Source: an uncultured Clostridia bacterium
GTDB taxonomy: Bacteria; Bacillota; Clostridia; Christensenellales; Aristaeellaceae
Length of the DNA: 64,000 bases
Reading direction: 5' to 3'
Assembly: GCA_946538615.1 (NCBI GenBank)
Contig: CAMNGW010000001.1
Coordinates: 5,166 to 69,165 of the forward strand
Shown here: positions 30,747 through 48,700 of the stretch, in pieces
How the letters are laid out: each line of letters begins with the position of its first letter
How positions within the stretch are numbered: position 1 is the first letter of the stretch
Notes under the pieces: model-generated
Databases searched by the model: none
Told to the model about the DNA's origin: nothing
What the model saw: the letters and a program-made list of their open reading frames with translations, nothing else
Position numbers and translations under genes: made by a program

Positions 30747-31161
30747 AGGAATACCTCTTTTCTTTCCCGGTCCGCTTTCTGAAATGTCTTCCCGTCTGCG
30801 GTCTTCCCTCCGGCAGTCTGGATTGTACAAAAGAAATCTTAAATGAACCTTGAAACTGAATCTGTTTTTCTGTATCTGAGGAATATGTCAGCTGCAGGTG
30901 AAACCACAGCTCATCTGAAGGACATACATGTATTATAATCTGATGCAGTCTGACACGTCCCCTGATCACAATGGAAGCCTCTGTCTTTCCGTCTTAATCC
31001 TGACATTTTTCTGACCTGTCTGCTTTCAGAAGACGTTCAAAGCAGAAAATTTTTCTGATTTTGTTCGTCTCCTGATGATTGGTCTTTACCATATCCGACA
31101 ACTTTCCGCGAAAAAACACTGTACTTGGCGTCTTTGGTCACCGTAAAAGCAGGTTCGTCTA

Positions 31162-31189
31162 TTGTCTTGTCTGCTGATTTGCATATAAT
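31162..31189 (+). promoter_or_regulatory. Putative promoter of the ParB-like/BMP fusion gene
   Basis: TTGTCT, a 16-nt spacer, then TATAAT (31184-31189). Confidence 0.4.
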
Positions 31190-31241
31190 GGCGCTGTGCG
31201 GAGCACCGCACGATCCATTCTGTTCATTCAGGAGGTATATT

Positions 31242-33218
31242 ATGAGCAGATCTGAAGCAATTGATCATTACCGCGAAGCTCTGCGTCGCGGACAAAAATA
31301 TTACCATGAGCATGTCAGCCAGGGACAGTTCCCCTATCCTCAGGTACTGGAAAACATCTATCCTGAATCCCGTTCCGCAGCCCGCCAGGATCTGGGTGTG
31401 CTTGAAATCCCGGCGGATGCCATTGTCGGCACACTTGCAGACGGCCGCAAAGCTGCCTTTGCCGGCAACTTTATGCCCCTTTTGGGTGAGACCACAGAAT
31501 TCGCCACAAAATGGGTGAACCTGTGTGAGGCCCATCTGGGATCAAAGGGAATTACCGATCCCATTTCCTGCTTTGAGTATATGGGACGTTTCTATGTTCA
31601 GGAAGGCCATAAACGTGTCTCTGTGCTGCGTTCCTATGACTCTCCTTCCATTCAGGCCAAGGTCACAAGGATCTTCCCGGTCTGGTCAGAGGATCCCGCG
31701 GTCCAGGCTTATTATGAGTTCCTTCCTTTCTTCAAACGTTCAGGCATCTATGTCCTGCAGTTCACACATCCGGGATGTATCAGAAAAATCGAATCCGCGC
31801 TCGGCTTTGAAGCCGACCATGTCTGGACCGACAGCGAACGTTCCGATTTTATGTCTTTCTACTGGGTCCTGCGGGAAGCCTGCACCCCTGAGATGCTCCA
31901 GCACGTCAAGGACCATTCCCTGAGTGAAGTTCTCCTCTCCTGCCTTGATCTGTATTCCTACGATCAGCTCAAGGACCTGGGGGTCAGCGATCTGCGCAAG
32001 CGTCTCGCTGCCCTTATGCCTGACCTCAAGTTTGCCGCTGAAGAGGATACCGTGGATAATGCCACAGTTTCAACTGAACCTGAGATTCCCGGCAAGAGTC
32101 TCGTCCGGAGCATTCTCGACGGGATCTCCAGGCCTACTCTCAATGTGGCTTTTATCAACGTCAATACGCCTGAGACAAGCGTGTGGACACGCGGTCATGA
32201 CGAAGGACGCAAGCATCTCGAAGAAGCACTGGGGAACCAGGTCAGAGTCAAGTCGTACTTTGTCAATGGTACAAGTGCTGAGGTCCTCATGGAGCGTGCA
32301 GTCACCGAGGACGGCGCCCATGTCCTGATTGCCACAGCACCTACGCTTCTGGCCAGCGCACGTCAGTGTGCAGCCATGCACCCCAATGTCAAAGTCCTGG
32401 TATGCGCTCTTTCTGTTCCGTATGTCGGCGTCCGCACATACTACAGCCGCATCCATGAAGCCAAATTCATCTCCGGTGCTGTTGCCGGGGCACTGTGCGG
32501 CTCAAACCCTGTAGGGTATATTGCCAGATATCCTATTCTCGGTGTACCGGCTTCAGTCAATGCCTTTGCCCTCGGCGTACGCATGACCAACCCGAACGCC
32601 AAAGTACTCCTTGAATGGTCCTGCCTTGAGGGGAACCCCGCGGAAAAGCTCCGCTCTGCCGGTGCACGGATCATTTCCGGCCACCCTGTGGCCGCCTCCA
32701 CACCTTCCAACGTGGCACCCGGCTGGTCAACCTCCATCATGGAAGACGACGGGTCTATGACGCCCATCGCCTCTGACGTATGGAACTGGGGCCAGACCTA
32801 CGAACAGATGATCCGTTCCATTCTTGCAGGCGCCTGGGACAGCGCCGCGCCCCGCGGCAACGCCGTCAACTACTGGTGGGGCATGTCCAGCGGCGTCATT
32901 GATGTGGAGCTTTCTGATGCCGTCCCCGAAGGCGTCCGTCAGCTCGCCAGCATTCTCAAGGAAGGGCTTGTCAACGAAACCATTCAGCCTTTCAACAGCA
33001 TAGTTTATGACCAGGCAGGCAATCTGCGTGCGGATCACAGTACCTGGTTCAACCCTGAAGAGCTCATGCAGATGAACTGGCTGTGCGATAATATCGTTGG
33101 CCGGATTCCGGATTTTAACGAGCTCCTCCCCATGTCGCGCGAAACAACCCGTCTGCTCGCACTGCCTCAGGAGACACCTGCTGAAGAAACAGCAGAGGAA
33201 TCCGGAAGCGCAGAATAA
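31242..33218 (+). CDS. Cytoplasmic fusion protein: N-terminal ParB/Srx-like domain + C-terminal BMP (PnrA/Med-type, periplasmic-binding-fold) domain
   Basis: 658 aa from the ATG at 31242, with RBS AGGAGG. There is no signal peptide or lipobox. The N-terminal part has LEIPADAIVGT ... GRFYVQEGHKRVSVLR, a ParB-type (D/E)GH(H/K)R motif. The C-terminal ~330 aa resembles BMP family proteins (VAFINV..., YYSRIHEAKFISGAVAG, YPILGVPASVNAFALG). Confidence 0.7.
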   Translation: MSRSEAIDHYREALRRGQKYYHEHVSQGQFPYPQVLENIYPESRSAARQDLGVLEIPADAIVGTLADGRKAAFAGNFMPLLGETTEFATKWVNLCEAHLGSKGITDPISCFEYMGRFYVQEGHKRVSVLRSYDSPSIQAKVTRIFPVWSEDPAVQAYYEFLPFFKRSGIYVLQFTHPGCIRKIESALGFEADHVWTDSERSDFMSFYWVLREACTPEMLQHVKDHSLSEVLLSCLDLYSYDQLKDLGVSDLRKRLAALMPDLKFAAEEDTVDNATVSTEPEIPGKSLVRSILDGISRPTLNVAFINVNTPETSVWTRGHDEGRKHLEEALGNQVRVKSYFVNGTSAEVLMERAVTEDGAHVLIATAPTLLASARQCAAMHPNVKVLVCALSVPYVGVRTYYSRIHEAKFISGAVAGALCGSNPVGYIARYPILGVPASVNAFALGVRMTNPNAKVLLEWSCLEGNPAEKLRSAGARIISGHPVAASTPSNVAPGWSTSIMEDDGSMTPIASDVWNWGQTYEQMIRSILAGAWDSAAPRGNAVNYWWGMSSGVIDVELSDAVPEGVRQLASILKEGLVNETIQPFNSIVYDQAGNLRADHSTWFNPEELMQMNWLCDNIVGRIPDFNELLPMSRETTRLLALPQETPAEETAEESGSAE

Positions 33219-33271: not shown

Positions 33272-35041
33272 TTATGGGCTGTCGTGGCCTGATGTGTACC
33301 ACTCGATATATTCCCTTAACTCGTCCTCACTGGGTTTTTCCTGATCTTTCGGTTCCTGGTATGCCTCATCCGGTTCCTCCCGGCATATTTCTTTCACACA
33401 GGGAAAATCTGCATTCTCCTCAGTATCTGATCCTGAAATGTCCCATGTGCTTCCAGCGCGTTCATATCTGACCCGTTCCTGAGCAATGCGTTTCATTGCA
33501 ATGAGACTGTTTCTCCTGCTCACATCATCCATGGGTACGCGGGCCAGTTCCTGTGCGAGTACCTCCGGTCTGTTCATCCAGTCAGGAAGGACCACCCCCT
33601 GCTCCACACGTCTGCGGAATTCCCAGATCGTACTTTCCTCAATCCCTTTCTGACGTGCATCATGAATAACACGCCTGGCAAGAAGGGTGTAGATTTCACA
33701 GTCATAAGCATCCTCCTGGGCAAGGTACTGCATATCGACCATAGGGTGCGGATCATCTTCATCCGGCAGATACCTGGCCTCGTCCACATTGCCGTTAATA
33801 TACAGATAATAAAGCGCTGCATACGTCTTGCCCTCAGAACGTCTGAGCACGCGTCCAAGGCGCTGGATGCGCTGACGGTTCGTCATGGTCGATGAAATGA
33901 CGATCCCGATCGAAGCATCGGGAACATTCACACCTTCATCAAGCGCCTTGCATGTGGCCAGGATGCGGACCATGCCATCTTTAAAATCCCTGAGCGCACG
34001 TCTTCGCTGCTCCGGCAGCATCTGAGAATGGTACTTGGCTACATCATGAGGGAACAGGGTCTGCATATATGCTGCGATCCTGTCGGTCTGCGAAATTTTT
34101 TCACAAAACAGGATGATGCGCTCTGTCCGCGGAAGACGGCGGATCAGGGATGCTGCACAGAGCATGCGATTTCTTGCATTGGTGACAAGACTCCGCCGGA
34201 GATAGATCACATTGAGATATTTTTGCGGCAGGGATTGCGGGTCATCCAGTTTTTTGGCCAGTTCCAGAATACGCATGAAAAAGCTCCCGCCGCCGGAAGA
34301 AGCCAGTGCCGGAAAGGCATTGAGCAGCTGTCCATGCAAATAGGCCAGTGTGTCGGACAGTTCGCTGTATTGTAAAACTTCTTCACCGGTAAAGGAGACT
34401 GCAATCTGATAGATCAGGAAAGGGCTCACCTGCCCTTCAAAAACTGCTTCCCTCAGTCCGTACCAGTAGATTTCACTGCCCAGCGCTGGTACAAGCACCT
34501 GATCGTACCGGGCACATTGGGGCGTAGCAGAAAGCCCCATGGAAGCATAGCGGGACGGATCAAAAAAGCGGCTGTACTGAAAATCAAAGATTTTTTTGTT
34601 CTCGTCACCCGTATAGTGATGGCATTCATCCGCAATCAGAAAAGTATGCCGCCCATTCTGCATGTCCATATTGACATGGGCGGACAGCGCGTGCCGTGCC
34701 GAATTGACAACATACACCATACAAAAGCAGTCCGGATCATCCTTTTCCGCGCCATAATAGAGACCAATTGTCCTTTCGTCTGCACGTATCTCCTTTTCAT
34801 AAAAACGTCTGAGGCTCTGCACCCACTGCCGTGCGATCGCAATGGTTGGCGTGACAATGCGGACGCGAAGTGCTGTTTCCGGATGTCCGGTCTTCAGTCT
34901 GTCTTCCAGTACCCTGATTCCTGTCATGGCGCACATGGTTTTCCCCGCGCCTGTGATCACATGGACAATCCCATGGAACGCATGTTTTTCCCATGCATCC
35001 AGACACTCTCTCTGCCACCTGTACAGCTCCAGATTGCTCAC
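33272..35041 (-). CDS. Superfamily 2 DNA/RNA helicase (ResIII/DEAH-type) with ~190-aa C-terminal extension ending in an acidic tail
   Basis: 589 aa. Motifs: Q-like YRWQRECL, I TGAGKT, II IADECHHY, III LSATP, VI QRIQRLGRVLRR. The acidic tail is DTEENADF...EEPDEAYQEPKDQEKPSEDE. Confidence 0.85.
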   Translation of the reverse strand: MSNLELYRWQRECLDAWEKHAFHGIVHVITGAGKTMCAMTGIRVLEDRLKTGHPETALRVRIVTPTIAIARQWVQSLRRFYEKEIRADERTIGLYYGAEKDDPDCFCMVYVVNSARHALSAHVNMDMQNGRHTFLIADECHHYTGDENKKIFDFQYSRFFDPSRYASMGLSATPQCARYDQVLVPALGSEIYWYGLREAVFEGQVSPFLIYQIAVSFTGEEVLQYSELSDTLAYLHGQLLNAFPALASSGGGSFFMRILELAKKLDDPQSLPQKYLNVIYLRRSLVTNARNRMLCAASLIRRLPRTERIILFCEKISQTDRIAAYMQTLFPHDVAKYHSQMLPEQRRRALRDFKDGMVRILATCKALDEGVNVPDASIGIVISSTMTNRQRIQRLGRVLRRSEGKTYAALYYLYINGNVDEARYLPDEDDPHPMVDMQYLAQEDAYDCEIYTLLARRVIHDARQKGIEESTIWEFRRRVEQGVVLPDWMNRPEVLAQELARVPMDDVSRRNSLIAMKRIAQERVRYERAGSTWDISGSDTEENADFPCVKEICREEPDEAYQEPKDQEKPSEDELREYIEWYTSGHDSP

Positions 35042-35974: not shown

Positions 35975-35984
35975 TTTTCTTTCT

Positions 35985-36020
35985 TGTCTCCCGGAAAGGC
36001 CCGGGAGACAGGTTTCTTTT
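35985..36020 (+). terminator. Intra-operon hairpin + T-tract (possible partial terminator/attenuator)
   Basis: Stem tgtctcccgg (35985-35994) pairs with ccgggagaca (36001-36010) around a 6-nt loop. The sequence ggtttctttt follows. Confidence 0.5.
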
Positions 36021-36058: not shown

Positions 36059-37438
36059 ATGGAGAACCTTGCATGGCTTGATCTCAAAGAAGATGAGCTG
36101 CAGCATGCTCTCAGACAGATCCTGCTCAGTGAATCAGCCGGTCCTAACCTGATCACCCGGGATATGTCGGTAGGCGTCGATTTTCTTGCAGATTTCTGGT
36201 CCAAATATTACCTCGAAGAATATATCAGAAATGGCGGCAGCAAGATCAAATTTGTAACAGGCCGTTCAGGTTCAGGGAAGACCCATCTTCTGGACCTTCT
36301 TTCGTACAAAGCCCAGAAAATGGGATATATCACCGTTAACCTTTCTGCAAGAGACTTTATGCTCGACAATTTCCGGACTGTCTACCTGGAAATCCTCCGT
36401 CACGTGGACTTGCCCTCCGTCTTTGACACCATGGCAGCAAATATTCTCCGTACGCTTGGAGTAGATCTTACTGACAAGCCTTCGGACCTCTCCTACACCG
36501 ATTTTCTGGTCAACAAAAGAGAACTGGACGTCATTATGCGCAATGATATCCGTGGTGCCCTGCGCTCCAATTTTCTTAACCATCCGCTTATGGACAGTAA
36601 TTTCGGTATGTGCTGTTCACTGCTTGTGGGCAATGCCCTTGGGCACCCCAAGCTTGACGATGCCACACTCAGCGTCCTCATGGACTGGATGCACGGTGAA
36701 AGCTCCCAGAAATTAACCACAATCAAAGCAGTTGGCCTGGCCCCCTACCGCATCAACAAATTCAACGCCCGGCACCTCCTGCGTTCACTGGCTGTTTTGC
36801 TGAACATGGCCGGCTATCCCGGCATTTTTGTCACCATTGATCATCTGGAAACAGTCATGAACCTCTCCGGACTGGACGAAATGAAGTATACGCCCAAAAA
36901 ACGCAATGACACCTATGAGAGCATCCGGCAGCTTGTGGATGACATCGACACGCTGCATCATGTTTTCTTTATCTATGCATTCAACAGTGAACTGCTGCAC
37001 AATGAAAAACTCGGGCTCCCTTCCTATGGGGCCCTGTGGATGCGCATCCAGAACGAGATTGTGTCAGAACGTTTTAACCGTTTCCAGGACATTGCCAACC
37101 TAGACAGACTGGCCAGACAGATTTATACACCCCAGGCCCTTATTGAAATCACCTCACGCCTGTCCTGCGCCCTTCCTGACCTGCTCGCCTGCTTCCCGGA
37201 CGTCTCGCCGGAAGCCGTATGGCGCCGTAACGGTCTGGCCGCTCTGATTCCCAAAAATCTCCCGGACGTCTGGCCACGGACCATCACCAGCGAAGAGGCT
37301 GAGGCGCTCATTGCTGAGCAGGCCTACGGTCCTGTCGGTCTGGTCAGGCAGGCGCTTCGTCTTTCTCTTGGGCTCGCAGAAAAGAATCCCGGGCCTGTGG
37401 ACATGCTCTCTGAGGAGGGGAATGAAAGCAATGTATGA
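36059..37438 (+). CDS. P-loop NTPase, BrxD/DUF2791-like (copy 1, Walker B Asp-His)
   Basis: 459 aa, with RBS ACGGAGGA. Walker A is GRSGSGKTHLL (36260-36283). The Walker B-like strand is GIFVTIDHLE, with D261 and H262. It is a paralogue of the next gene (MAGYPGIFVTIDHLE vs VMGYAGWVILFDEAE). Confidence 0.75.
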   Translation: MENLAWLDLKEDELQHALRQILLSESAGPNLITRDMSVGVDFLADFWSKYYLEEYIRNGGSKIKFVTGRSGSGKTHLLDLLSYKAQKMGYITVNLSARDFMLDNFRTVYLEILRHVDLPSVFDTMAANILRTLGVDLTDKPSDLSYTDFLVNKRELDVIMRNDIRGALRSNFLNHPLMDSNFGMCCSLLVGNALGHPKLDDATLSVLMDWMHGESSQKLTTIKAVGLAPYRINKFNARHLLRSLAVLLNMAGYPGIFVTIDHLETVMNLSGLDEMKYTPKKRNDTYESIRQLVDDIDTLHHVFFIYAFNSELLHNEKLGLPSYGALWMRIQNEIVSERFNRFQDIANLDRLARQIYTPQALIEITSRLSCALPDLLACFPDVSPEAVWRRNGLAALIPKNLPDVWPRTITSEEAEALIAEQAYGPVGLVRQALRLSLGLAEKNPGPVDMLSEEGNESNV

Positions 37439-38651
37439 TCTTGAAGCCCGGCACATTATAGAGGCCCTGCGTTCAGGTGTTCCTTCACGCACGGTTGGAC
37501 AGTGTTTTGCCCAGGCAAGGCCGGCTCTCCTTGAACGCATTCAGACCCAGCTTAATGAAGTCAGGGAACAGCACGTCTCTTCCGGCATGGTGATCCGCGG
37601 ACGATACGGTGAGGGCAAGACCCATCTTCTCAACACGGTCCTCTCTATGGCTTATGAGAACAATATGGTGGTTTCCTTACTTCCCCTGAGTCTGGAAAAC
37701 CCTATGGACAAAATGCACACGATGTATCCTGCCCTGGTCAGCCAGACCTATCTCCCCGGACGTGAACAGCCCGGGTTCTTCGAGCTGTTCAGCAATCTTT
37801 CCCTGAATTCCGACCCTTCCAACCAGCTGCAGGTCTTCGCCCTCAAGGAACTGGAATCAGATAAGCTCTTTTATACGCTCCGCACCTATCTGAGCGCCCA
37901 AAACAATGATGATTTCCAGTTTTCCCTGCGTTCAGATTTTGAAGGCAATTTTGTTTCCAATGCCGATGTCAAAAAAATGTACAGAGCTGAGTTCAAGCAG
38001 ACCGCCAAGTTCAATACGCCCTTCGCTAAGACCCTTCACACCTTTGACTATATCGCTTTCCTCAGCAAAGTCTTCCAGGTTATGGGCTATGCAGGCTGGG
38101 TGATACTTTTTGATGAAGCCGAGCTCATGGGGCGTCTTGGCAAAAAAGCCAGAATCAACTTTTACCGCAACATGGCTAAGTTCATCAATCCGCCGCCAAG
38201 TCTCATCAATACCTTTACCATGTTCGCTTTCACGGACAGCTATGTGGATGAGGTCATAGATGCAAAACATGACATCAGGAACCTGAATGAGCTTTTTCCC
38301 GACAATCAGGAGCCCATGCTAAGCATGATCCATGAAATCTCCAATGCCAACCGGCTGCGTTCCCTCACGCAGGATGAAATCCGCCAGGTCGTCTGTCATA
38401 TCCGCGAATACCACGCAAGAGCTTACTCCTGGACACCTGCCTCTACAGATGATGAACTCATGCATGTTGCCGACTCTGCAAGCCATGCGCTCCGCACCCG
38501 GCTGCGTTCTGTGATCGAATATCTTGATCAGGAATTCCAGTATGGAAACGCCATGGAAGCCAGCATTGGAGCACTCCAGACATCGTCATACGAAGAAGCA
38601 ACACCTTCCCTGGAAGCAATGAACACTGACGAAGACCCGGCCAACAGCTGA
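37431..38651 (+). CDS. P-loop NTPase, BrxD/DUF2791-like (copy 2, canonical Walker B)
   Basis: 406 aa from the ATG at 37431, with GAGGAGGGG ~10 nt upstream. It overlaps the upstream stop (ATGTATGA). The N-terminal segment is ARHIIEALRSGVPSRTVG. Walker A is GRYGEGKTHLL (37599-37622) and Walker B is VILFDEAE (D228 E229). Confidence 0.75.
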   Translation: MYDLEARHIIEALRSGVPSRTVGQCFAQARPALLERIQTQLNEVREQHVSSGMVIRGRYGEGKTHLLNTVLSMAYENNMVVSLLPLSLENPMDKMHTMYPALVSQTYLPGREQPGFFELFSNLSLNSDPSNQLQVFALKELESDKLFYTLRTYLSAQNNDDFQFSLRSDFEGNFVSNADVKKMYRAEFKQTAKFNTPFAKTLHTFDYIAFLSKVFQVMGYAGWVILFDEAELMGRLGKKARINFYRNMAKFINPPPSLINTFTMFAFTDSYVDEVIDAKHDIRNLNELFPDNQEPMLSMIHEISNANRLRSLTQDEIRQVVCHIREYHARAYSWTPASTDDELMHVADSASHALRTRLRSVIEYLDQEFQYGNAMEASIGALQTSSYEEATPSLEAMNTDEDPANS

Positions 38652-38792: not shown

Positions 38793-39230
38793 CTATGCTT
38801 TCTGTTTGAATACCGTATGACACTTGGGGCACGTCATTTCCACCTCTCCGCGGCCCCGGCTCAGCCGCATCAGGCTCCTGCAGCCCGGACAGCGGAAATA
38901 TTTGTACTGCTTGCGCAGCTTCAGTCTCAGGAAAAATGCTTTCGTGTCTCTCTTCCGGGTCCGGTACCATGTCAGAAAGGCTGTATTTTCCTGTGCCCTT
39001 TTGAGCACCTGTCTGGAAAGCATTCTGAAAAGCGCATAGATTTCAAAAGCAAAACCCAGAAAATACATCAGACCTGAGCCGAACAGACTTCCAAGCATGA
39101 CAAAAACAGCACCTGCAAGCAGGCAGGCAAGACCCAGCTCATCCGCTCCCCGTCTCCCCTGCATAAACCGCATCATGCGCCCACGGAAGCGGAACCACAG
39201 CTGTCTGAGAAACACTTTGATTTTATCCAT
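38793..39230 (-). CDS. Small membrane protein with C-terminal zinc ribbon
   Basis: 145 aa from the ATG at 39230. It has two hydrophobic segments, a basic linker, then CPGC...(15)...CPKC. I remember the pattern as widespread in Clostridia with no assigned function. Confidence 0.6.
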   Translation of the reverse strand: MDKIKVFLRQLWFRFRGRMMRFMQGRRGADELGLACLLAGAVFVMLGSLFGSGLMYFLGFAFEIYALFRMLSRQVLKRAQENTAFLTWYRTRKRDTKAFFLRLKLRKQYKYFRCPGCRSLMRLSRGRGEVEMTCPKCHTVFKQKA

Positions 39231-39368
39231 TGCGTATCCGTCCTTTGTCCTGTATTGGCACATGCAATATGATACCACACTGTGTGTGAACTTCTTATGA
39301 AATTTTGGCCATAAATGAAAATATGTCCAAAACAGGCATCTGCTTTCCATCCGGCCGCACAGCTGTGC

Positions 39369-40478
39369 TTACCACCGGGAGAGGACGCTGATCATATTCC
39401 GCTGGAGCTGCCTGTACCTGCCGTAGGACACGTCATCTTTGCAGCAGTCCGCGCTGACCCCCATCTCTGTCTTTGTCCTGCCGGTCAGGTCCACGCACCT
39501 TCCCTGGTATCCGCTGACAAAATAGCCCCCCTCTTCAAACCCTGTGTCCAGGATGTCCAGCCCGCACATATCTGCCACGATCCTCGCCGTCACGTCATCC
39601 TGGCCCTTCTCAGGTACCGAGAGGTCAAACTTTCCCCTGCAGGTTTCTCCGGTATAAGCTTTGCGTACCACAGCAATCAGTTCATACAGATTCGTGATCC
39701 CCGGAAACTGCCGGACCGCTTTGCAGGGAACATCCTTCATCCATGTCATGTCCTCCGCAAACTTCCCGTCTGCTTCCATATCATACACAGCCAGAGATAC
39801 CGCCATACATCCCGGGAGAGCCGGGTTCGGTGCGTCTTCAAGCTCCATGCCCGGAAGGTACAGATGGTTTTTCCGGATCTGCAGCCTGTTCCTGGAAACA
39901 GCCGTATTGACAAGGGCGACAAGGGCTTCCGTATCCGCAAGGGACCTGTGTGCGCCGCGAAGGTCAAAACCTATTGCTTCTGCCATATTGCCCAGTTTAT
40001 GGCTCCGCATGCCCGGCCAGTACCGCCTTGCCACTTCCAGTGAATCCGCAGCACGGTCCGGCAGCTTTCTTTGGATCCTTGTACATGCAGATTGCAGAAA
40101 ACCGACATCAAAGGTCGCGTTATGGGCCACAAAGGGGTCATCACCGATAAATTCCAGAAATCTGGGGAGCACGGTCCTGATATCCGGCTCATCACTGACC
40201 ATATCATCCGTGATATGGGTAAGCTGCTGTACCTCATAGGGAATGGGCATGCCGGGATTGACCAGCTGCTGGAAAACTTCCGTGCGCTTCCCGTGCACCA
40301 CACGGATCGCGCCGATTTCCGTGATCCCGCTGTACTTGGGGCTCAGCCCTGTTGTCTCCAGATCGAAAGCAACGTACCGGTGGGAAGCAAGACATAGAAA
40401 ATCTTCAGCATCTATCATACGCAGCCCCTGTGATACGTGCCGTCTGGCCTGAGCGACCTTTTCTGTAAAAGCATCCAT
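39369..40478 (-). CDS. DEDDh (DnaQ-like) 3'-5' exonuclease fused to a ~190-aa C-terminal domain of unknown function
   Basis: 369 aa from the ATG at 40478, with RBS GGAAGGAGGG. Exo I is VAFDLETTGL, Exo II is FVAHNATFDVGFL and Exo III is HRSLADTEAL. Confidence 0.8.
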   Translation of the reverse strand: MDAFTEKVAQARRHVSQGLRMIDAEDFLCLASHRYVAFDLETTGLSPKYSGITEIGAIRVVHGKRTEVFQQLVNPGMPIPYEVQQLTHITDDMVSDEPDIRTVLPRFLEFIGDDPFVAHNATFDVGFLQSACTRIQRKLPDRAADSLEVARRYWPGMRSHKLGNMAEAIGFDLRGAHRSLADTEALVALVNTAVSRNRLQIRKNHLYLPGMELEDAPNPALPGCMAVSLAVYDMEADGKFAEDMTWMKDVPCKAVRQFPGITNLYELIAVVRKAYTGETCRGKFDLSVPEKGQDDVTARIVADMCGLDILDTGFEEGGYFVSGYQGRCVDLTGRTKTEMGVSADCCKDDVSYGRYRQLQRNMISVLSRW

Positions 40479-40563
40479 CGCTGATCCCTCCTTCCTGTTT
40501 CTTTTCGGCATTCCCCGCGCTTTCCCTGCATGACCCGTTTTTCATTCCTGCCCGTCTCTGGAA

Positions 40564-40641: not shown

Positions 40642-43600
40642 ATGAAACGCATCTGTATGCTTGCCCTTCTTCTCCTGCTTTTTGTCTCCTTAGCCGCAGG
40701 CGAGAGCGAAACTTACCGGTACAATGCTGAAACATATGCTGTCACAAAATATTCCGGCCCCGGCGGTGCCATCACCGTCCCGGCCGAATGGGACGGTCAG
40801 AAAGTTAAGGCACTGGCTCTTACTCTCTTTTACAATAACGATGACGTGACAGAACTCACCCTGTCCGAGGGCATTGAGGCCCTGCGGGACGGTGCCCTTG
40901 CCTATATGCGCAGCCTGACAGCCCTTCATCTGCCGGAGACTTTGCGCTACATCGGTCTGGGCAACATCCAGGGACTTTACGCACTCAAAGAAGTAATTGT
41001 TCCATCGTCCGTCAGTTACATCGGGAATAACTGCTTCAACTTCCTTGACGCCCTCGAATCAGTGACCTTTCTGGGGGAAGCGCCTTTTATTGGTGAGCTC
41101 AGCTTTTCAAACATCCCCGACTCCACTGTCTTTTATGTTCCGGATGACTGTGTTGACGCGTACCGTCAGTGCCTGCCGGAAAGCGCCAGCATCCAGCCTT
41201 CCGGAAAAAATGCTGTCCGGCACGCTTTTCTTACGGACGAAAACGTTTTCGATTTTGACGCATCCACAGGGACCGTGACCGGCTACCATGGTTCGGAAGC
41301 CATTGTTACGCTTCCCCGGACCATAGGCGGGACCCAGGTACGGCACATTGGCGAAGGCGTTTTCCGCAAGGACAATTTCCTGAGTGTGATCCTTCTCCCG
41401 GAAGGCCTTGAATCCATCGGCAAAGAAGCCTTTGCTGATGCCCGTTTCCTTGTGCACGTCGACTGTCCGGACACAGTCACACTGATTGATGACGGGGCTT
41501 TCAACAACGGTTTCCACGGCAGTTCCTTTGACTGGAGCAGGAACCTGAAGTCCATTGGCGACCTTGCCTTCAGATGGGCCAATTCTCTCAGTTCGGACCT
41601 TATTCTGCCTGAAGGGCTCACCAGCATTGGTGAGGAGGCTTTCACGGGCATGAGCTATGTCGATGTCTATCTGCCTTCCACCATTGAACATATCGGCCGC
41701 CGTGCCTTTGCAGACTCTTTCCTGCACTATCTCTCCCTTCCTGTCTATGAAATGAGGGATTTTGCTGAGGATGCTTTTGTGAACACTTCATCTTTTGAAG
41801 ATCTGGACCTTCCCTGGGATGCCTCCCTTGAAACACTGCGTACTTTTGAAGCCTTCCTGAACCCGCAGGCGCCCGGCTGCCATGTCTGGCTGAACAATCC
41901 TCCGGACGTCGATTATGTAAGCGGGGACTACCTGTACACCTTAGGCGATGATGACATGTTCTACCTCACCTCCTATCAGAGCGATCAGGAGGCCCTCATG
42001 CTTCACTACAATGTCTGGGACAATTCCGGGGAGGAGCGTGTCACCAAACCCGTTGCAGGCCTTGGAGACGGCGTGTTCAAAGGCAATCAGACCCTGAAGC
42101 TTTTCAGGGTCACCCATTCCTTCGACATGACGAAAATCGGCAAGGAAGCCTTCGCTGATTCGTCCATCGTGGCAGTCGACCTGTTCTATTCCATCGAAGA
42201 GATCGGGGAAGGCGCTTTCCGCAACTGTAAAAATCTGGAAGAACTCGTTTTGCCCGCAAGCGTGAAATATATAGGGGATGGCGCCTTTGACGGCTGCGAT
42301 GCCCTGAAATCTGTGACAGTGCTCTGCGACGCTGGCATCGTTCCTGATGACGCCTTTGTCAACTGCCCTGCTCTGATGGAACATCCGGAGGGCATCACCT
42401 TCCTGCCCGACGCTGACCCGGATGCTGTCCGTGCCGTCCGCACAGCCATGGGGCTCCCATGGTACGACGCAGAAAACCTGATTCTTATGCCCTGTGCCCC
42501 TGACGACGCAGCTGTCTTTGATTTTGATCCCCAATCGGGCATGATACGTGGCTATCTCGGTACAGACGCCGATGTCGTTGTGCCCCGTGAAATTGATGGC
42601 GTGGCCGTGCGCGGCATAGCCCGCAATGCATTCGAAGCGTGCCGGGACTACACGGATACTGACATGGTCACCAACCGGACATCTTATGTCTATCTTCGTT
42701 CCCTTGTCCTTCCTGAAACAGTGCAAGTGATTGAAGACGGGGCCTTCAGCTATCTGCAGCACCTTTCGACCTTTATCTGCTATGCGCCCCTTGATACGAC
42801 GGGCCGCAGTACGTTTGCTTACTGCAGGTCATTGAACCATGTCATTTTCCCCAACGGCTGCGATGTCATCGACAACTATGCCTTCGACCATGCAGGCTCC
42901 CTTGAAACATTCTGGAACCCGCATACAGTAAGCCGGATCGGAACTTTTGCCTTTTCCCACTGTGCACTCCGCGAAGCAGTGGTAAACGCTCTGGAACTGG
43001 ACTATGGCGTCTTCTCATACTGCAATGACCTTGAGTCCATTCATTTCAGCCGTGCTCCCAAAACTTTTACAGCTGTCCCGGTTGTCAGCTGTCCGTCCCT
43101 GTGTCTTGTCTGCCTGCAGTTTACCTCCCTCTCTTCCCTTCCCCCGGACGGTTTCATCTCTCAGGTTGCGCCTGTACTGACCGTGCAGGTGCCGGCGGAC
43201 ACTGACGAAGAGAACTGTGCCCGCGCCGGGCAGGTTCTGGTATGGGGCTCAGACACAAAAGCGGAGGTTCTCCGTGAGAACTGCACATATGAAGTTTCAG
43301 CACCTGATATTACTGCCATTCTGACAGAATATGAACAGAACCCCTATCTGCCGCCCCAGGCGGAACCCACCTCTGAGCCAGCGAAGGCAGAGCCTGCAGG
43401 ACCGGAAGGAGAGCCTTACCTGGGCTCATGGTACGTTGCCCAGGTTATCCTCGGTGATACGACCTATGCGGCATCTGATTTTGGCGTGGAAGCCACGTTC
43501 ACCCTTTACGCTGACGGGACATGTCAGATGGTTGATCCGGACGGGGAGTCAATCCAAGGTGTCTGGTCTATGACTGACGGGAACATGAACCTTATGGGAG

Positions 43601-45492
43601 AACGCTTGGAGCCCCAGGAAGACGGTTCCCTTCTTGCCTCAAGCGACGGCATCGGGATGGTCTTCCTCAGACTGGATGAGGACAGTATCCCCGCACAGAA
43701 TGGCCCCGGCAAAGAAGGCGAGCCGTTTGTTGGGACCTGGCGCGCCACGCAGGTCCGGAAAGGCGGTCTGATCTATCATTCCGATCAGAAAACGGAAATC
43801 ACCCTTCACGCTGATGGCACCTGCCTGCTTCTGGGGGCAGATGGGGACACCCAGCAGTCAACATGGTCCGTGAAGAACGGCGCTGTCAGCATCATGGGCA
43901 AGATATTCGAACCCCATGAAGACGGTACGCTCACCACATCCCTGGGGGACACAGAGCTGATCTTTATCCATGTAGAAGAAGCGTCCCCTGTGCCGTCCGG
44001 AACGTCCGATGAGGACAGGCAAGCGTATTCCGGTTCCTGGCACCTGGTCCGGGTCGGGCTCGGCGATACCATATATGCCGCTTCTGATCTCGGCATGGAG
44101 ATGGAGCTCCTGCTGGACCCGGATGGGACCTTTACCCTTCACGGGCCGGAGCATGATGAAACCGGCACCTGGTCCATCGCAAACGGTACCCTGGATCTTT
44201 CCGGGACTCCATTTGTCCTGCAGGAGGACGGAACCCTGTCGGGCGAGGATGAAGGCATCCGCCTGGTTTTTGAACACGGGGCCGCTGCCGACCTGACACC
44301 CGCAGGCAGAGAACCCTATATTGGCACCTGGTACGTGACCCATGTTACCTTCGGGGAAACCACCTATGCCGCCTCTGAACTGGGAATGGAAATCGAGATC
44401 ATTCTGCATGAAGACGGGACGTGCCTGATACACAATCCCGAAAGCGAAGAGCACACCGGGACCTGGTCACCCAGGGGAAATGTACTTGACATCGACGGCA
44501 CGCCATTTACGTTGCAGGAAGATGGGACCCTTTCGGGCGAAGAAGACGGTATCCGTATGGTATTTGCCCACAAGAGCGAAACCGCCGCTCTCCCCAGTGA
44601 AGACATGGCGTTCTACAGCGGTACCTGGCTCGTGACCGGTGTGGCCTTTGGCGATACGATGTTTGCAGCTTCTGAACTTGGAACGGAAATTGAGATCATT
44701 CTCTGCGAAGACGGAACTTGCGTGACCCGCAGCCCTGAGACCGGAGAAGTGGCCGGTACATGGATGCTCCGGAATGGGCAGCTTGATATAAACGGCACAC
44801 CATTCACTGTGCAGGAAGACGGTACGCTTTCAGGCACAGAGGATGGGATCCGTATGGTATTTGCACGCCAGGAAGAACCGGATGCCGCCCCCGGCGAAGA
44901 AGGCCTTCCCTTTACCGGTACCTGGTACGCCACCTCGGTCCAGTCCGGCGGATCAGTCCGCTCAGCCGCGGAATCCGGCATCTCGCAGGCCCTTGACCTT
45001 GGTGCCGAAGGACAGTACACACTCACTGACACAGCAACGGGGGAAACCCTTGCCAGCGGAAGATGGACCGTCACCGGTACCGGTCTGGACCTGGGTATGG
45101 TCCAGCTGGACAAACAGGAAGACGGCTCGCTCAGCGCACCTGCAGATGACATGACCATCTTTTATACCAGGGACCTTCCGGCTGAAGCCACACTTCCTCC
45201 CACCGCTGAACCTTCCCTGAACTATGCCGGCACATGGGTCCCCTCCAGAGTCTATGTCTCAAGTCTCGACTTTGATGCCGCCGATCTTGGCTATGCGGAT
45301 GTCCTGTATCTTCACCCTGACGGCACCTACCGGTACGAAGACAAACAAGGTCTGGTCACAGAGGGTACATATACCGCGTCCCCGGAAGGTATCCAGTTTG
45401 ACGGCGCGCTCTGGGCCCTGCAGGAAGACGGGAGCCTGCTCCGGGAAGACGGTGTCATTCTGATTTCCTATATCCGTCAGGAAGCACCCTGA
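40642..45492 (+). CDS. Giant secreted protein: BspA-like leucine-rich repeats (N-terminal ~900 aa), Pro-rich linker, then seven ~99-aa GTW-type (lipocalin-like?) repeats
   Basis: 1616 aa. The signal peptide is MKRICMLALLLLLFVSLAAG. Many units of the form L.LPE.L..IG..AF..C..L occur. The C-terminal repeats are described in the repeat feature. Confidence 0.8.
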   Translation: MKRICMLALLLLLFVSLAAGESETYRYNAETYAVTKYSGPGGAITVPAEWDGQKVKALALTLFYNNDDVTELTLSEGIEALRDGALAYMRSLTALHLPETLRYIGLGNIQGLYALKEVIVPSSVSYIGNNCFNFLDALESVTFLGEAPFIGELSFSNIPDSTVFYVPDDCVDAYRQCLPESASIQPSGKNAVRHAFLTDENVFDFDASTGTVTGYHGSEAIVTLPRTIGGTQVRHIGEGVFRKDNFLSVILLPEGLESIGKEAFADARFLVHVDCPDTVTLIDDGAFNNGFHGSSFDWSRNLKSIGDLAFRWANSLSSDLILPEGLTSIGEEAFTGMSYVDVYLPSTIEHIGRRAFADSFLHYLSLPVYEMRDFAEDAFVNTSSFEDLDLPWDASLETLRTFEAFLNPQAPGCHVWLNNPPDVDYVSGDYLYTLGDDDMFYLTSYQSDQEALMLHYNVWDNSGEERVTKPVAGLGDGVFKGNQTLKLFRVTHSFDMTKIGKEAFADSSIVAVDLFYSIEEIGEGAFRNCKNLEELVLPASVKYIGDGAFDGCDALKSVTVLCDAGIVPDDAFVNCPALMEHPEGITFLPDADPDAVRAVRTAMGLPWYDAENLILMPCAPDDAAVFDFDPQSGMIRGYLGTDADVVVPREIDGVAVRGIARNAFEACRDYTDTDMVTNRTSYVYLRSLVLPETVQVIEDGAFSYLQHLSTFICYAPLDTTGRSTFAYCRSLNHVIFPNGCDVIDNYAFDHAGSLETFWNPHTVSRIGTFAFSHCALREAVVNALELDYGVFSYCNDLESIHFSRAPKTFTAVPVVSCPSLCLVCLQFTSLSSLPPDGFISQVAPVLTVQVPADTDEENCARAGQVLVWGSDTKAEVLRENCTYEVSAPDITAILTEYEQNPYLPPQAEPTSEPAKAEPAGPEGEPYLGSWYVAQVILGDTTYAASDFGVEATFTLYADGTCQMVDPDGESIQGVWSMTDGNMNLMGERLEPQEDGSLLASSDGIGMVFLRLDEDSIPAQNGPGKEGEPFVGTWRATQVRKGGLIYHSDQKTEITLHADGTCLLLGADGDTQQSTWSVKNGAVSIMGKIFEPHEDGTLTTSLGDTELIFIHVEEASPVPSGTSDEDRQAYSGSWHLVRVGLGDTIYAASDLGMEMELLLDPDGTFTLHGPEHDETGTWSIANGTLDLSGTPFVLQEDGTLSGEDEGIRLVFEHGAAADLTPAGREPYIGTWYVTHVTFGETTYAASELGMEIEIILHEDGTCLIHNPESEEHTGTWSPRGNVLDIDGTPFTLQEDGTLSGEEDGIRMVFAHKSETAALPSEDMAFYSGTWLVTGVAFGDTMFAASELGTEIEIILCEDGTCVTRSPETGEVAGTWMLRNGQLDINGTPFTVQEDGTLSGTEDGIRMVFARQEEPDAAPGEEGLPFTGTWYATSVQSGGSVRSAAESGISQALDLGAEGQYTLTDTATGETLASGRWTVTGTGLDLGMVQLDKQEDGSLSAPADDMTIFYTRDLPAEATLPPTAEPSLNYAGTWVPSRVYVSSLDFDAADLGYADVLYLHPDGTYRYEDKQGLVTEGTYTASPEGIQFDGALWALQEDGSLLREDGVILISYIRQEAP
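43408..45489 (+). repeat. Seven tandem ~99-aa protein-coding repeats
   Basis: The consensus, visible by eye, is G(T/S)W.......G.T.YAAS(E/D)LG.E.E..L.EDGTC.......E..GTW....G.LD..GTPF.LQEDGTLSGE.DGIR.VF. Repeats 3-5 are most similar to each other. Confidence 0.75.
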
Positions 45493-45653: not shown

Positions 45654-45735
45654 GCAAATGCACAGACAGACATGAAGTTCTGTCTGGCTGGTGCTTCTGT
45701 GGTTCAACAAGGGTCAGAAGTCTGGAGGTTTAGTA

Positions 45736-48700
45736 ATGAAACAGATCACCGGAACCCTTTTGCTGGTATTATTCATGTTCGCCCTGTTCCCTTCTGCCTG
45801 CGCCGAGGATCTGGTCCTCTTTGAAGACGTGTTTTCTTCAGAAGAAGCCTGTACCATGGACGGTCCGTCCACCGATGCACTGACAAAGGGCTATCTGAAA
45901 AATCTCCTTTATCCGGGCACGTCCTCCAGCCGCTCTGCCATGCCTCTTGGCGACAAGCTGACCGGGGTCAATAAAACCCTCTATGATCTGCTGAAATCCG
46001 GCATTGCAGAAATTGCAGCAGGTGACCGGCAGTCCACTCAGTTTGAATTCTACTACAGGGATATTTTTCCCCAGATCTCCTTTACTGAGGCCGAGCTCGG
46101 GACGCCTATCGTTGTCGATAAGGCCATCTCTTCTGCTGCCGTCAGTGCAATGAAAGCCAAAACAACAGCTTTGCTTGATATCGCCTCTGTGGTCCGTGCC
46201 CTGCTCGCAGACTCTCCCTATGAGCTGTACTGGTTCGACAAATCCGGTAAGGGATATACGATTGGAACCTCAGAAAAAATAAGCGCGACTACCAAAGTGC
46301 TCTCTTTTAAACCCGATGTCAGCATGCTTACCATAACCATGAATGTGGTGCAAGCCTATGCTGTGGACTATGACCCCGATCCCGATATCAAAGTCAAAAA
46401 CTCCGTCATGAACACAACCTACGGCAAAAGTGCGGCCCAGGCAGCTGTAAAAGCCCGCGCCATCACCGCTGCCAACGAGGGCAAAAGTGACTATGACCGT
46501 CTCCTTGCCTATAAAAACGCCATCTGTGAGCTGGCAAGCTATAACAACGAGGCGGCAGAAAGCACAGATATGCCCTATGGTGATCCCTGGCAGATGATCT
46601 GGGTCTTTGATGACGATCCCACAACCAAAGTTGTCTGTGAGGGCTATGCCAAAGCCTTCAAATACCTCAATGACCTTTCCCGCAGCTCAGTGAGCACCAT
46701 ACTCGTCTCCGGAACAATGATCGGTGCCACGGGTGAAGGTCCACATATGTGGAATGTTGTCACCATGGATGATAACCTCCGCTATCTTGTGGACATCACC
46801 AACTCGGATATCGGCACGGTCGGCTATCCGGACCAGCTGTTTCTCGCAGGCTACGATTCCGGTACCTTGAGCAGTGGTTATATTCTCACCCCTAACGGCA
46901 ACGCTACCCTGTACGGCTATGATTATGAAACCCTCATGCTCTTTTCCGAGGATGAGCTGACCCTGTCAGACAAAGACTATATGGAAAACCTTGACCTGCC
47001 CCGTCTGCAGGCTGAGGACAGGACAGTCGTCATCCTTCCCGAAGTCACAGAGCATCTCAGGCCCACCGGAGCAGAATTCTCCTTCCATCTGGAAAACTAT
47101 GATCCTGAGAACAGCCAGGATACGCCTGAATATTCCCTCCGCCATATCTCCGGCCCTGAGCTGAACCCTGAATTGTCCGTCTCAGACGATCATACGTATG
47201 GAACAGCCACAATCCCCTATGAGAACCAGCCCAAGGAAAGCAGCGTTTCAGTCTATGAGATTCGCTGTACGCTTGGAAATACTGTATACCGGAAGACATG
47301 TGCCATCACTTTCACCGAGGATGCCATGCCCACCGGCAGCACGCTTCCCGATCCCATTGAGCTCCAGATGGGACAGACTTCACAGATCACCGTTTCCTTC
47401 ACGCCTTCCGAAGGCTGGTGGGAGCAGGCTGCAGATCCTGACATCCTCTTTGATATGAGCCCTGAAGCTTTCGGGGACGCCTTTACCTATGAGGTCGACC
47501 GGGAAAACGTCGCGCCTAACGCGGTCCCCGTCACCCTTATCCCTCAAAAACCCGGTTTCTATCTGGGTTGGGCCGGTCCTGTCTTTAACGGCATCCAGTA
47601 CAGGGACCTAGTCGAAGTCATTGTCCTGGATGAAAACGGGAACCTCCCTCAAGTCACGCCGGAATTTGACGAGATAGCACCCTGCAGTTACGCGGTGGTT
47701 CCCGAAAATGATGACCATTTATCCGCAGACGGATGGCTCTTCTCTTTCAGCCTCTCCAATGCTGAGCTGCTCCGCAAGCGTTACGGGAGCGTGCCTGTCT
47801 TCACCGTTGAGCCCCTGTCCGGTCTTCCCTTTGATATTGATGTCCATTTTTATGAGGACCTCTACAGCGGATATGTGACAACGGACCGCAAGCCTTCTCA
47901 GCCCTGCACAGCGGAATTCCTGGTAACGGCCAGCTTTGGCGATGTATCTTCAAGCACAACGGCCTCTGTCACCTTCCGCGAAGATGTTTTGCCCACCGGC
48001 GTTGCTGTCCCGGATGTGATTGAACTGCAGCTTGGCCAGGCATATACATGTACAGCTGGCTTTGAACCTGAAGAGGGATGGTGGACAGACCCGGAATATG
48101 GCACAGCCATATGGTTCGACGGGAATTACCAGGACTATGTGGAAATCCAGATCACCCAGCCCGATCAGACCCACACCGGAAGTGCAGTTCTGACCCCTCT
48201 GCAGGCCGGCATCTCTCAGGCCTGTGTGCACGTGTCCACACAGGGCGTGACATACAGCAAGTTTGTCGCCATTTGCATTGCCGATGAAAGCGGCAACGTT
48301 CCCATGCCTGAACCTGAGTTTGAATCTGTCAGCGAACAGCGCTATGTCATCATTCCTCAGGACCATGCCAGTATCAGCGCAGATCCTCATCTGTTCTCTT
48401 TCCACCTTGCCAATTACGATATCCTTGCACCCTTCTATGAAGGAGACCCCGTTTTTACTGTAACATCCTCCCCGGACCTCACCTTTGATTATCATGTCCA
48501 GACCTGGGAAAGCGGCGGTGAAGCTGATGCCGTTGCAAAGCCTGACGCACCCTGCACAGCTGAATTTACGGTCGCTGTCGATTGGGACGGACATCAGGCA
48601 AGCACTGCAGTTTCTGTTTCATTCACCGAAGGTCCGCTGCCCACCGGGGTCGCCATACCCGATAACGTTCATCTGCAGGTGGGACAGGAAAGTGTATTTT

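Follow-up and report, generated by a model that had tools for sequence, protein, structure and literature searches.

The window, a stretch of 64,000 nucleotides (nt) from an uncultured Clostridia bacterium (contig CAMNGW010000001.1, positions 5,166 to 69,165 of the forward strand), carries two overlapping genes for BrxD/SngB-like AAA+ proteins, here called copy 1 and copy 2. Copy 1 (36059..37438, plus strand) encodes a protein of 459 amino acids (aa) with a degenerate ATP site, which keeps a putative trans-acting Arg. Copy 2 (37431..38651, plus strand) encodes a 406-aa ATPase with a complete cis catalytic set and no conserved arginine finger. Both proteins scored above the Pfam gathering threshold of family PF10923 (BrxC_BrxD; 22.2 bits), with 98 bits for copy 1 and 84.4 bits for copy 2, and their AlphaFold2 (AF2) models reached pLDDT (predicted local distance difference test) values of 86 and 85.5, respectively. 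Together with a gene for an orphan protein (P3) and a gene for a superfamily 2 (SF2) helicase, the pair constitutes a four-gene cassette.

The Walker A motif of copy 1 (G68-T75, GRSGSGKT; 36260..36283, plus strand) is intact, and its degenerate Walker B motif reads D261-H262 (36839..36844, plus strand) within MAGYPGIFVTIDHLE (residues 250-264). The putative arginine finger R329 (37043..37045, plus strand) belongs to the motif G..SYxAL..R. In copy 2, the Walker A motif (G57-T64, GRYGEGKT; 37599..37622, plus strand) is accompanied by a canonical Walker B motif, D228-E229 (38112..38117, plus strand), within VMGYAGWVILFDEAE (residues 217-231), and by the sensor-2 Arg R355 (38493..38495, plus strand). 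A first-pass annotation of the window had described the genes as paralogous ATPases with asymmetric Walker B motifs, copy 1 having an intact Walker A motif and a His (H262) in place of the catalytic Glu, and copy 2 having D228-E229. The strings it quoted, their coordinates, the 8-nt overlap of the genes and the Shine-Dalgarno sequence inside copy 1 were all found in the sequence, as were the two Walker B motifs.

The copies are strongly diverged. By BLASTP, 26% identity was found over 68 aa around Walker A, and profile-profile comparison aligned 232 columns with an E value of 1.7e-5. Judged by these alignments and by their common Pfam family, copy 1 and copy 2 are paralogues from an ancient duplication, as the first-pass annotation had proposed. 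Database relatives at E <= 1e-3 comprised 1505 clusters for copy 1 and 2094 clusters for copy 2, and stemmed mostly from gut Lachnospiraceae and other Clostridia. In a three-way alignment with canonical family members, the motifs followed each other in the order Walker A, Walker B, sensor 1, arginine-finger segment and helical lid with sensor 2, which is the order of ORC/Cdc6-type AAA+ proteins. The secondary structure of the AF2 models ran beta1-alpha-beta2, helical insert, beta3 (carrying Walker B), beta4 and beta5. Foldseek matched the copy 2 model to Aeropyrum ORC2 (1w5t), Sulfolobus Cdc6/Orc1 (2qby) and BrxC (9zll) with probabilities of 0.99-1.0, but with TM-scores of 0.3-0.4; RdrA and a second BrxC structure (9zdx) were also among the matches. 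The best matches of the copy 1 model were RdrA and generic AAA+ proteins, with low TM-scores. When PDB sequences were searched with copy 1, copy 2 and a canonical profile, neither BrxC nor any BrxD or SngB relative of solved structure was retrieved.

Reciprocal loss of catalytic residues

Counts over loci refer to the 80 best loci, which were examined out of 336 species genomes with a copy-1 relative. For the motif analysis, 79 copy-1 and 76 copy-2 proteins were aligned together with 25 canonical PF10923 proteins, all of them single-copy and taken from the same class. The canonical set includes the SngB encoded by the bacterium's own genome, with the Walker B motif MIIMFDELVNL.

The canonical proteins placed the catalytic Glu exactly at the position that the first-pass annotation had singled out, with D-E in 25/25. 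The same Glu was present in 76/76 copy-2 proteins. In copy 1, the Walker B Asp was invariant and the following residue (+1) was Asp in 47, Asn in 25, His in 4 and Gln in 2 proteins; Glu occurred in 0/79. A wider sample gave a similar picture, with Asn in 63, Asp in 39, His in 17 and Glu in 1 of 120 copy-1 homologues, and D-E in 120/120 copy-2 homologues. The His form was limited to the window's own clade. Thus, the Glu-to-His asymmetry of the first-pass annotation holds across homologues as a loss of Glu, and the His itself is a peculiarity of one clade. As far as the alignments go, the absence of the catalytic Glu defines the whole copy-1 lineage.

The Walker A Lys was retained in all three groups (79/79 copy 1, 76/76 copy 2, 25/25 canonical). 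G68, G71, G73 and K74 of copy 1 were invariant in 79/79 orthologues, and YGEGKTH of copy 2 was invariant among 120 homologues. At sensor 1, all 25 canonical proteins had Thr; copy-1 proteins had Asp (63), Asn (6), Ser (5) or Gly (3), and copy-2 proteins Ser (59), Gly (10), Thr (6) or Ala (1). The sensor-2 Arg column (canonical R391) was invariant in the canonical set (25) and in copy 2 (76/76, corresponding to R355), and in copy 1 it was occupied by Arg (36), Gln (25), Lys (7) or Gly (6).

The opposite distribution was observed for the G..SYxAL..R motif. Its Arg, R329 in copy 1, was present in 25/25 canonical and 79/79 copy-1 proteins and in 0/76 copy-2 proteins, which had Val, Ile or Leu instead. 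Likewise, the Glu of the YE motif (copy-1 E287) was found in all 25 canonical and all 79 copy-1 proteins, and was replaced in copy 2 by Arg (55), Asn (9), Lys (6) or Gln (2). A second candidate Arg, R338 just before strand 5, was present in 70/79 copy-1 proteins and corresponded to Val or Leu in copy 2.

Read across these columns, the degeneration is reciprocal: copy 1 is without the catalytic Glu, the sensor-1 Thr and a conserved sensor-2 Arg, and copy 2 is without the conserved, putatively trans-acting Arg. Since a homo-oligomer of copy 2 would lack the trans Arg and a homo-oligomer of copy 1 would lack the catalytic Glu, only the interface between the Arg face of copy 1 and the pocket of copy 2 would contain the full set. 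As the P-loop of copy 1 is invariant in the clade, nucleotide binding by copy 1 is probably still needed.

R329 as candidate arginine finger

Cryo-electron microscopy of BrxC (2026) revealed an asymmetric AAA+ dimer in back-to-face arrangement, whose interface contains ATP. In this dimer, K78 (Walker A), E269 (Walker B) and R430 (sensor 2) act in cis and the partner supplies K326 and R330 as trans arginine fingers (PMC13326643). The distance from the Walker B Glu to the finger is 61 residues in BrxC and 57 residues in the Clostridial BrxC proteins that were extracted here. In the canonical SngB of the bacterium's own genome, 62 residues separate E254 from the invariant R316, with which R329 of copy 1 aligns. 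R329 lies 68 residues after D261 because copy 1 carries an insertion of 7-8 residues past Walker B. In the AF2 model, the segment between strands 4 and 5, which is predicted with low confidence, contains helix 321-331 with R329 at its end; this placement is compatible with an exposed interface element. Spacing and conservation suggest that R329 is probably the arginine finger.

Translational coupling of the pair

The genes of copy 1 and copy 2 are joined by a coupling region (37412..37438, plus strand). Its Shine-Dalgarno sequence GAGGAGGGG (37412-37420) is part of the copy-1 gene, and in ATGTATGA (37431-37438) the copy-1 stop and the copy-2 start overlap. The overlap measured 8 nt (ATGnnTGA) in 59/79 loci, 1 nt in 9 loci and had other lengths in 9 loci. 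GGAGG was found 8-12 nt upstream of the copy-2 start, and overlap plus GGAGG was conserved in 77/79 loci. In the 2/79 loci with an apparent gap between the genes, the choice of start codon may be wrong. Since the overlap is conserved, the ATG at 37431 is favoured as start of copy 2 over a longer open reading frame beginning with TTG at 37311. Comparison of the loci provides good evidence that copy 1 and copy 2 are translationally coupled. The first-pass annotation had gone further and suggested stoichiometric co-translation; the coupling part of this proposal was borne out, while a 1:1 stoichiometry is not proven by an overlap.

The four-gene cassette and its distribution

P3 (35192..35974, plus strand), the first gene of the operon, encodes an orphan protein of 260 aa, in which an N-terminal helical hairpin is combined with a globular domain of no recognised family. 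No relative of it was found among Pfam families, PADLOC models or PDB sequences. When 1.84 billion proteins were searched with a P3 profile, 683 cluster representatives were retrieved, almost all of them stand-alone proteins of 255-275 aa. One apparent fusion (P0295), which joins a truncated rhamnosidase to a P3 fragment and most likely arose as a chimera during assembly, was set aside. Between P3 and copy 1, a terminator-like element is formed by a 12-bp GC-rich hairpin with a T tract (35983..36012, plus strand). It is not a conserved part of the cassette; in other loci P3 and copy 1 are mostly separated by 2-30 nt, and a few loci (e.g., L015) have hairpins of their own.

The SF2 helicase (33272..35041, minus strand; 589 aa) is transcribed divergently and contains intact motifs I (TGAGKT), II (DECHH) and VI (QRIQRLGRVLRR) and a C-terminal extension of about 190 aa. 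Its Pfam matches were ResIII, Helicase_C and ERCC3_RAD25_C, i.e., it is of the XPB-Rad25 type. The best PADLOC match was to the C-terminal helicase part of PbeA, and models of mREase_IV and Cas3 matched as well. An identity of the cassette with PbeABCD was rejected, since the helicase core alone matched PbeA and no model of PbeB, PbeC or PbeD was matched.

The first-pass annotation had asked whether homologous loci would show the same pairing, and they did. Copy 2 followed copy 1 in 78/80 loci, and the remaining two stopped at a contig edge. A P3 homologue was located upstream of copy 1 in 76/80 loci, and a helicase homologue adjoined the pair in nearly all 80, usually divergent and upstream of P3, with a few helicases downstream or on the same strand. 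A peptide-pattern scan of 185,579 species genomes confirmed a copy-1 relative in 336 of them, among which are Sphaerochaeta (Spirochaetota) and Desulfosporosinus. Among 300 sampled genomes of the class, close copies occurred in about 1% and single canonical copies in about 8%. The cassette is frequent among Lachnospiraceae from the guts of humans and animals, and one copy-2 protein alone is recorded on >1,000 contigs. It occurred 0 times in the phage collection and gave one distant match in the plasmid collection. In one locus (L062, JAMPFK010000006.1), a metagenome-assembled genome labelled Bacteroides fragilis, the cassette is 46-50% identical to that of the window and typical of Lachnospiraceae, pointing to mis-binning or to transfer across phyla.

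The flanks differed between loci, the 126 non-redundant proteins encoded there giving matches to 160 Pfam families. Genes of Wadjet, UvrD/GajB-like, mad3, Schlafen/AlbA_2 and AbiEii-like ATPase type occur in the flanks, as do ordinary metabolic genes. When a fifth gene conserved across the loci or an evident defence island was looked for, the flanks proved heterogeneous. Taken together, the cassette has the profile of a self-contained, horizontally mobile accessory unit. A defence-island-like setting was seen in one locus (L001 1-17245, DAMAMW010000001.1), where a 1607-aa DEAD+UvrD fusion helicase and an AAA_14 protein are encoded to one side of the cassette and a complete Wadjet JetABCD to the other.

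In a maximum-likelihood tree, copy 1, copy 2 and the canonical proteins were each monophyletic, and the copy-1 and copy-2 subtrees were similar. The relatives of both copies from another locus, L123, were placed as sisters of the copy-1 clade (support 99/92) and of the copy-2 clade (100/98). It follows from the tree and the sister placement that the duplication and the division of labour are old and that both genes were inherited together.

Other settings of the protein family were observed in three loci. The sister cassette in L123 (2879-7716; G013:C36) comprises a P3-like protein of 271 aa, a copy-1-like protein of 325 aa, a copy-2-like protein of 481 aa and an SNF2-type helicase encoded on the same strand. 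Its copy-1-like protein has lost Walker A (KFGITDDSFNYAG), has D-I at Walker B and keeps RYDALKLRI (Y.AL..R). The copy-2-like protein keeps GSGKS and LIDEAE and carries a low-complexity Asn/Ser insert. L120 (446-7166; G059:C87) contains five genes, encoding a 288-aa unknown protein, three tandem BrxD-like ATPases (383, 410 and 456 aa) and a 689-aa Lhr/DEAH-like helicase; all three ATPases have D-E at Walker B, and the third is without the Y.AL..R motif. L124 (2664-5893; G043:C1) was rejected as a relative of the cassette, containing instead a ParA-like ATPase, a 419-aa low-complexity protein and a single complete BrxD-like ATPase. The latter has the motifs LVDEIE and SYNALSDRL and no adjacent helicase.

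Comparison with known systems

Shango consists of the TerB protein SngA, the PF10923 ATPase SngB and the Lhr-like DEAD helicase SngC, and was experimentally shown to be anti-phage. The cassette resembles it in being a compact operon that combines an SF2 helicase and a BrxD-family ORC/Cdc6-like ATPase with a first protein that is small or uncharacterised, and both cassette ATPases matched the PADLOC model of SngB (E values of 3.7e-15 and 3.9e-11). However, they scored only 54 and 41 bits on this model, as compared to 616 bits for the SngB of the bacterium's own genome. SngB is a single ATPase with complete motifs, whereas the cassette ATPase is duplicated with each copy missing a part. No TerB domain was found in P3 and nine homologues at E <= 1, while the own-genome SngA scored 208 bits. 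The cassette helicase had no SngC match among its 24 PADLOC families, while the own-genome SngC scored 889 bits; unlike in Shango, the cassette helicase is XPB/ResIII/PbeA-like and divergently transcribed. The own-genome Shango is complete and canonical and lies on another contig (L010 7738-13159; G000:C2:33737-39158), with TerB_N and TerB_C in SngA, FDEL as Walker B of SngB and a DUF5131 gene just downstream. Since a textbook Shango exists elsewhere in the same genome, the twin-ATPase cassette is separate from it and not a decayed Shango.

A PF10923 ORC/Cdc6-type ATPase linked to an SF2 helicase is also found in the BrxD-BrxHI dyad of the bacteriophage exclusion (BREX) systems of type 2 (Pgl) and type 6. 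BrxD and BrxHI form a tightly linked ATPase-helicase dyad, in which BrxD, a stand-alone ORC/Cdc6-type AAA+ protein, has been proposed to load or activate the helicase (PMC12839542). The cassette differs from the dyad by having two ATPases rather than one and an additional orphan protein. On the NCBIfam equivalog model of BrxD (NF033438), copy 1 and copy 2 reached 60.1 and 44 bits as compared to a cut-off of 350, and the PADLOC match to BrxD was weak. None of the BREX core genes PglZ, PglX and BrxC was found beside the cassette, its neighbours being the SF2 helicase, the orphan, a DEDDh exonuclease and leucine-rich-repeat proteins. BrxC (NF033441) had no match in the bacterium's own genome, which is 81% complete. 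The BrxC AAA+ dimer (PDB 9zdx/9zll) belongs to the same Pfam family and has its trans fingers about 57-61 residues past the Walker B Glu (PMC13326643). BrxC, however, is a homodimer of 1200-aa chains with both roles in one polypeptide, whereas the cassette splits the roles over two genes.

Heteromeric AAA+ machines with degenerate subunits are well known, so the principle is not new. In ORC1-5/Cdc6, RFC and the delta/delta-prime subunits of the bacterial clamp loader, degenerate paralogous subunits occur, hydrolysis is confined to particular interfaces, and the complexes load ring or motor proteins on DNA. As proposed here for the cassette, each subunit retains one of two elements, the nucleotide pocket or the arginine finger. 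They differ in being housekeeping replication machines of at least five subunits, in contrast to a two-gene pair in a small mobile cassette. Neither paired BrxD/SngB-type ATPases nor the four-gene cassette were found described in the searchable literature. The first-pass annotation had remarked that the feature is not known to be described for BrxD-type proteins. The 'dual ATPase' of MANTIS was considered and discarded, as it is a different pair, namely the AAA+ protein MtsA and the helicase-nuclease MtsD.

Proposed mechanism and alternative explanations

The first-pass annotation had suggested an obligate hetero-oligomer of one hydrolysis-competent subunit and one ATP-binding, regulatory subunit. 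The comparative analysis lends support to such a hetero-oligomer with a non-catalytic copy 1. We consider it probable (about 0.68) that copy 1 and copy 2 form a heteromer with a single composite ATP site. In this heteromer, the copy 2 pocket would supply the cis set, i.e., the Walker A Lys, the Walker B Asp-Glu, the sensor-1 Ser/Thr and the sensor-2 Arg. The Arg face of copy 1 with R329 would close on the ATP pocket of copy 2 and thereby generate a single hydrolytic site, and nucleotide bound in the pocket of copy 1 itself may play a structural or regulatory part. The working unit could be a back-to-face heterodimer, similar to the ATP-bound BrxC dimer, or an alternating oligomer. The conserved stop/start overlap would ensure that both subunits are made together. 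The ATPase pair may then serve as an ATP-gated switch or loader for the SF2 helicase.

Several observations weigh against this reading. The +1 residue is Asp in 47/79 copy-1 proteins, so that slow hydrolysis is possible in these, and a Glu at +3 (E264 in copy 1; Glu in 73 and Asp in 6 proteins) is conserved in both copies. Walker B motifs of the DD type are functional in DnaA and STAND NTPases, in which they hydrolyse slowly. A residue-level match between R329 and the BrxC fingers was not found, since MAFFT and hhalign comparisons with six BrxC N-terminal domains aligned the Walker A region only. The finger role of R329 is deduced from position and conservation, by which R338 is a second candidate. 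Finally, as regards a defence role of the cassette, many flank genes are housekeeping genes, and the flank tally is a raw count and not an enrichment.

The first of these points would be accommodated if both subunits hydrolysed ATP, with Asp at +1 or the Glu at +3 (E264) as the base in copy 1, so that the copies would be a fast and a slow ATPase instead of a live and a dead one. The invariant Walker A of copy 1, which places nucleotide binding under selection, fits this explanation too. Against it, Asn, His or Gln occupies +1 in 31/79 proteins, including that of the window; catalysis by the +1 residue is therefore dispensable. Copy 2, which has the canonical Glu, conserves the +3 Glu to the same degree; the +3 Glu is therefore a clade feature common to both copies and not a replacement. 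Moreover, the sensor-1 Thr and the sensor-2 Arg have been lost in copy 1 as well, the partner that would face its pocket has no conserved Arg, and in the sister lineage L123 the P-loop of copy 1 has been lost entirely. Two active subunits thus appear improbable. Still less credit is given to the possibility that there is no heteromer at all and that the copies form separate homo-oligomers, e.g., a DNA-binding scaffold and a motor, which are merely co-expressed. Single-copy SngB and BrxD are presumably homo-oligomeric, and co-expression and gene overlap are no proof of binding; furthermore, the AAA+ domains of BrxC homodimerise on ATP (PMC13326643). Yet both kinds of homo-oligomer are predicted to be inactive while both P-loops are under strong purifying selection, and the strict co-occurrence, the similar subtrees and the conserved stop/start overlap of the genes also count against this possibility. 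Such separate assemblies are therefore rated very improbable, and the heteromer with one composite site is preferred.

As regards the role of the whole cassette, an anti-phage or anti-mobile-element system is somewhat favoured, in which the cassette would act as a nucleic-acid surveillance module similar to Shango or BrxD-BrxHI. Alternatively, the four genes may have no immune function and form a DNA-maintenance or mobile-element module, e.g., for helicase loading, replication restart or repair on genomic islands. ORC/Cdc6-like ATPases and XPB/Rad25-type helicases are classic parts of replication and repair, no nuclease or obvious effector was recognised in the four proteins by Pfam and PADLOC, and many of the flanking genes are of the housekeeping type. 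However, the cassette is patchily distributed (about 1% of the 300 class genomes and 336 of the 185,579 species genomes), has evidently been transferred across phyla and sits between unrelated flanks in different loci. In some loci it is bordered by Wadjet and other defence genes, and the nearest characterised relatives, SngB in Shango and BrxD in BREX types 2 and 6, are defence components. The absence of the cassette from phages and the single distant plasmid match also speak against a maintenance or mobile-element module; for the defence role as such, this rarity argues neither for nor against. A maintenance function is accordingly regarded as unlikely, though less so than either alternative to the composite ATP site.

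More speculatively, and with somewhat less than even confidence, the pair may lie at the centre of an extensive superfamily of immune cassettes that has no name so far, each cassette being composed of an orphan, a dead Arg-donor, a live BrxD paralogue and a swappable helicase. The helicase would be XPB-like here, SNF2 in L123 and Lhr-like elsewhere. In such cassettes, the split ATP site would function as an ATP switch with a single interface: whether the two subunits meet would be controlled by P3 or by foreign nucleic acid, and closure of the interface would license the helicase on invader DNA. If this were true, the pair would represent a minimal two-gene analogue of ORC/Cdc6-type loading that has been recruited for defence.

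To our knowledge, no other part of BREX types 2/6 or of Shango is as poorly understood as BrxD and SngB, for which neither a structure nor a mechanism has been published. The natural split of the ATP site into donor and acceptor would show which face of a BrxD-type protein contacts which, and it predicts a defined asymmetric dimer. It also offers separation-of-function mutants (E229Q in copy 2, R329A and K74A in copy 1), by which ATP binding and hydrolysis in ATPase-helicase modules could be told apart. If the cassette is a defence system, it would be relevant to phage-host dynamics in the gut, given its abundance in gut Lachnospiraceae.

Neighbouring genes in the window

Downstream, the cassette is abutted by a gene on the minus strand (39369-40511 and 38793-39350 being the two minus-strand genes in this region) for a DEDDh (RNase_T) exonuclease with a YunG-like C-terminal part, followed by a gene for a small Zn-ribbon/IBR-like protein. 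The exonuclease matched the PADLOC DEDDh model and the candidate system PDC-S48, and this neighbour is not conserved in other loci. On the other side of the helicase gene, a 697-aa protein is encoded at 31125-33218 (plus strand), with a Bmp/PnrA-like substrate-binding domain confined to the C-terminal half (residues 340-598) and no domain assigned to the N-terminal half. Two giant proteins of 1616 and 1392 aa with BspA-type leucine-rich repeats are encoded at 40642-45492 and 45691-49869 (plus strand), the first of which also contains GH43_C lipocalin-like repeats.

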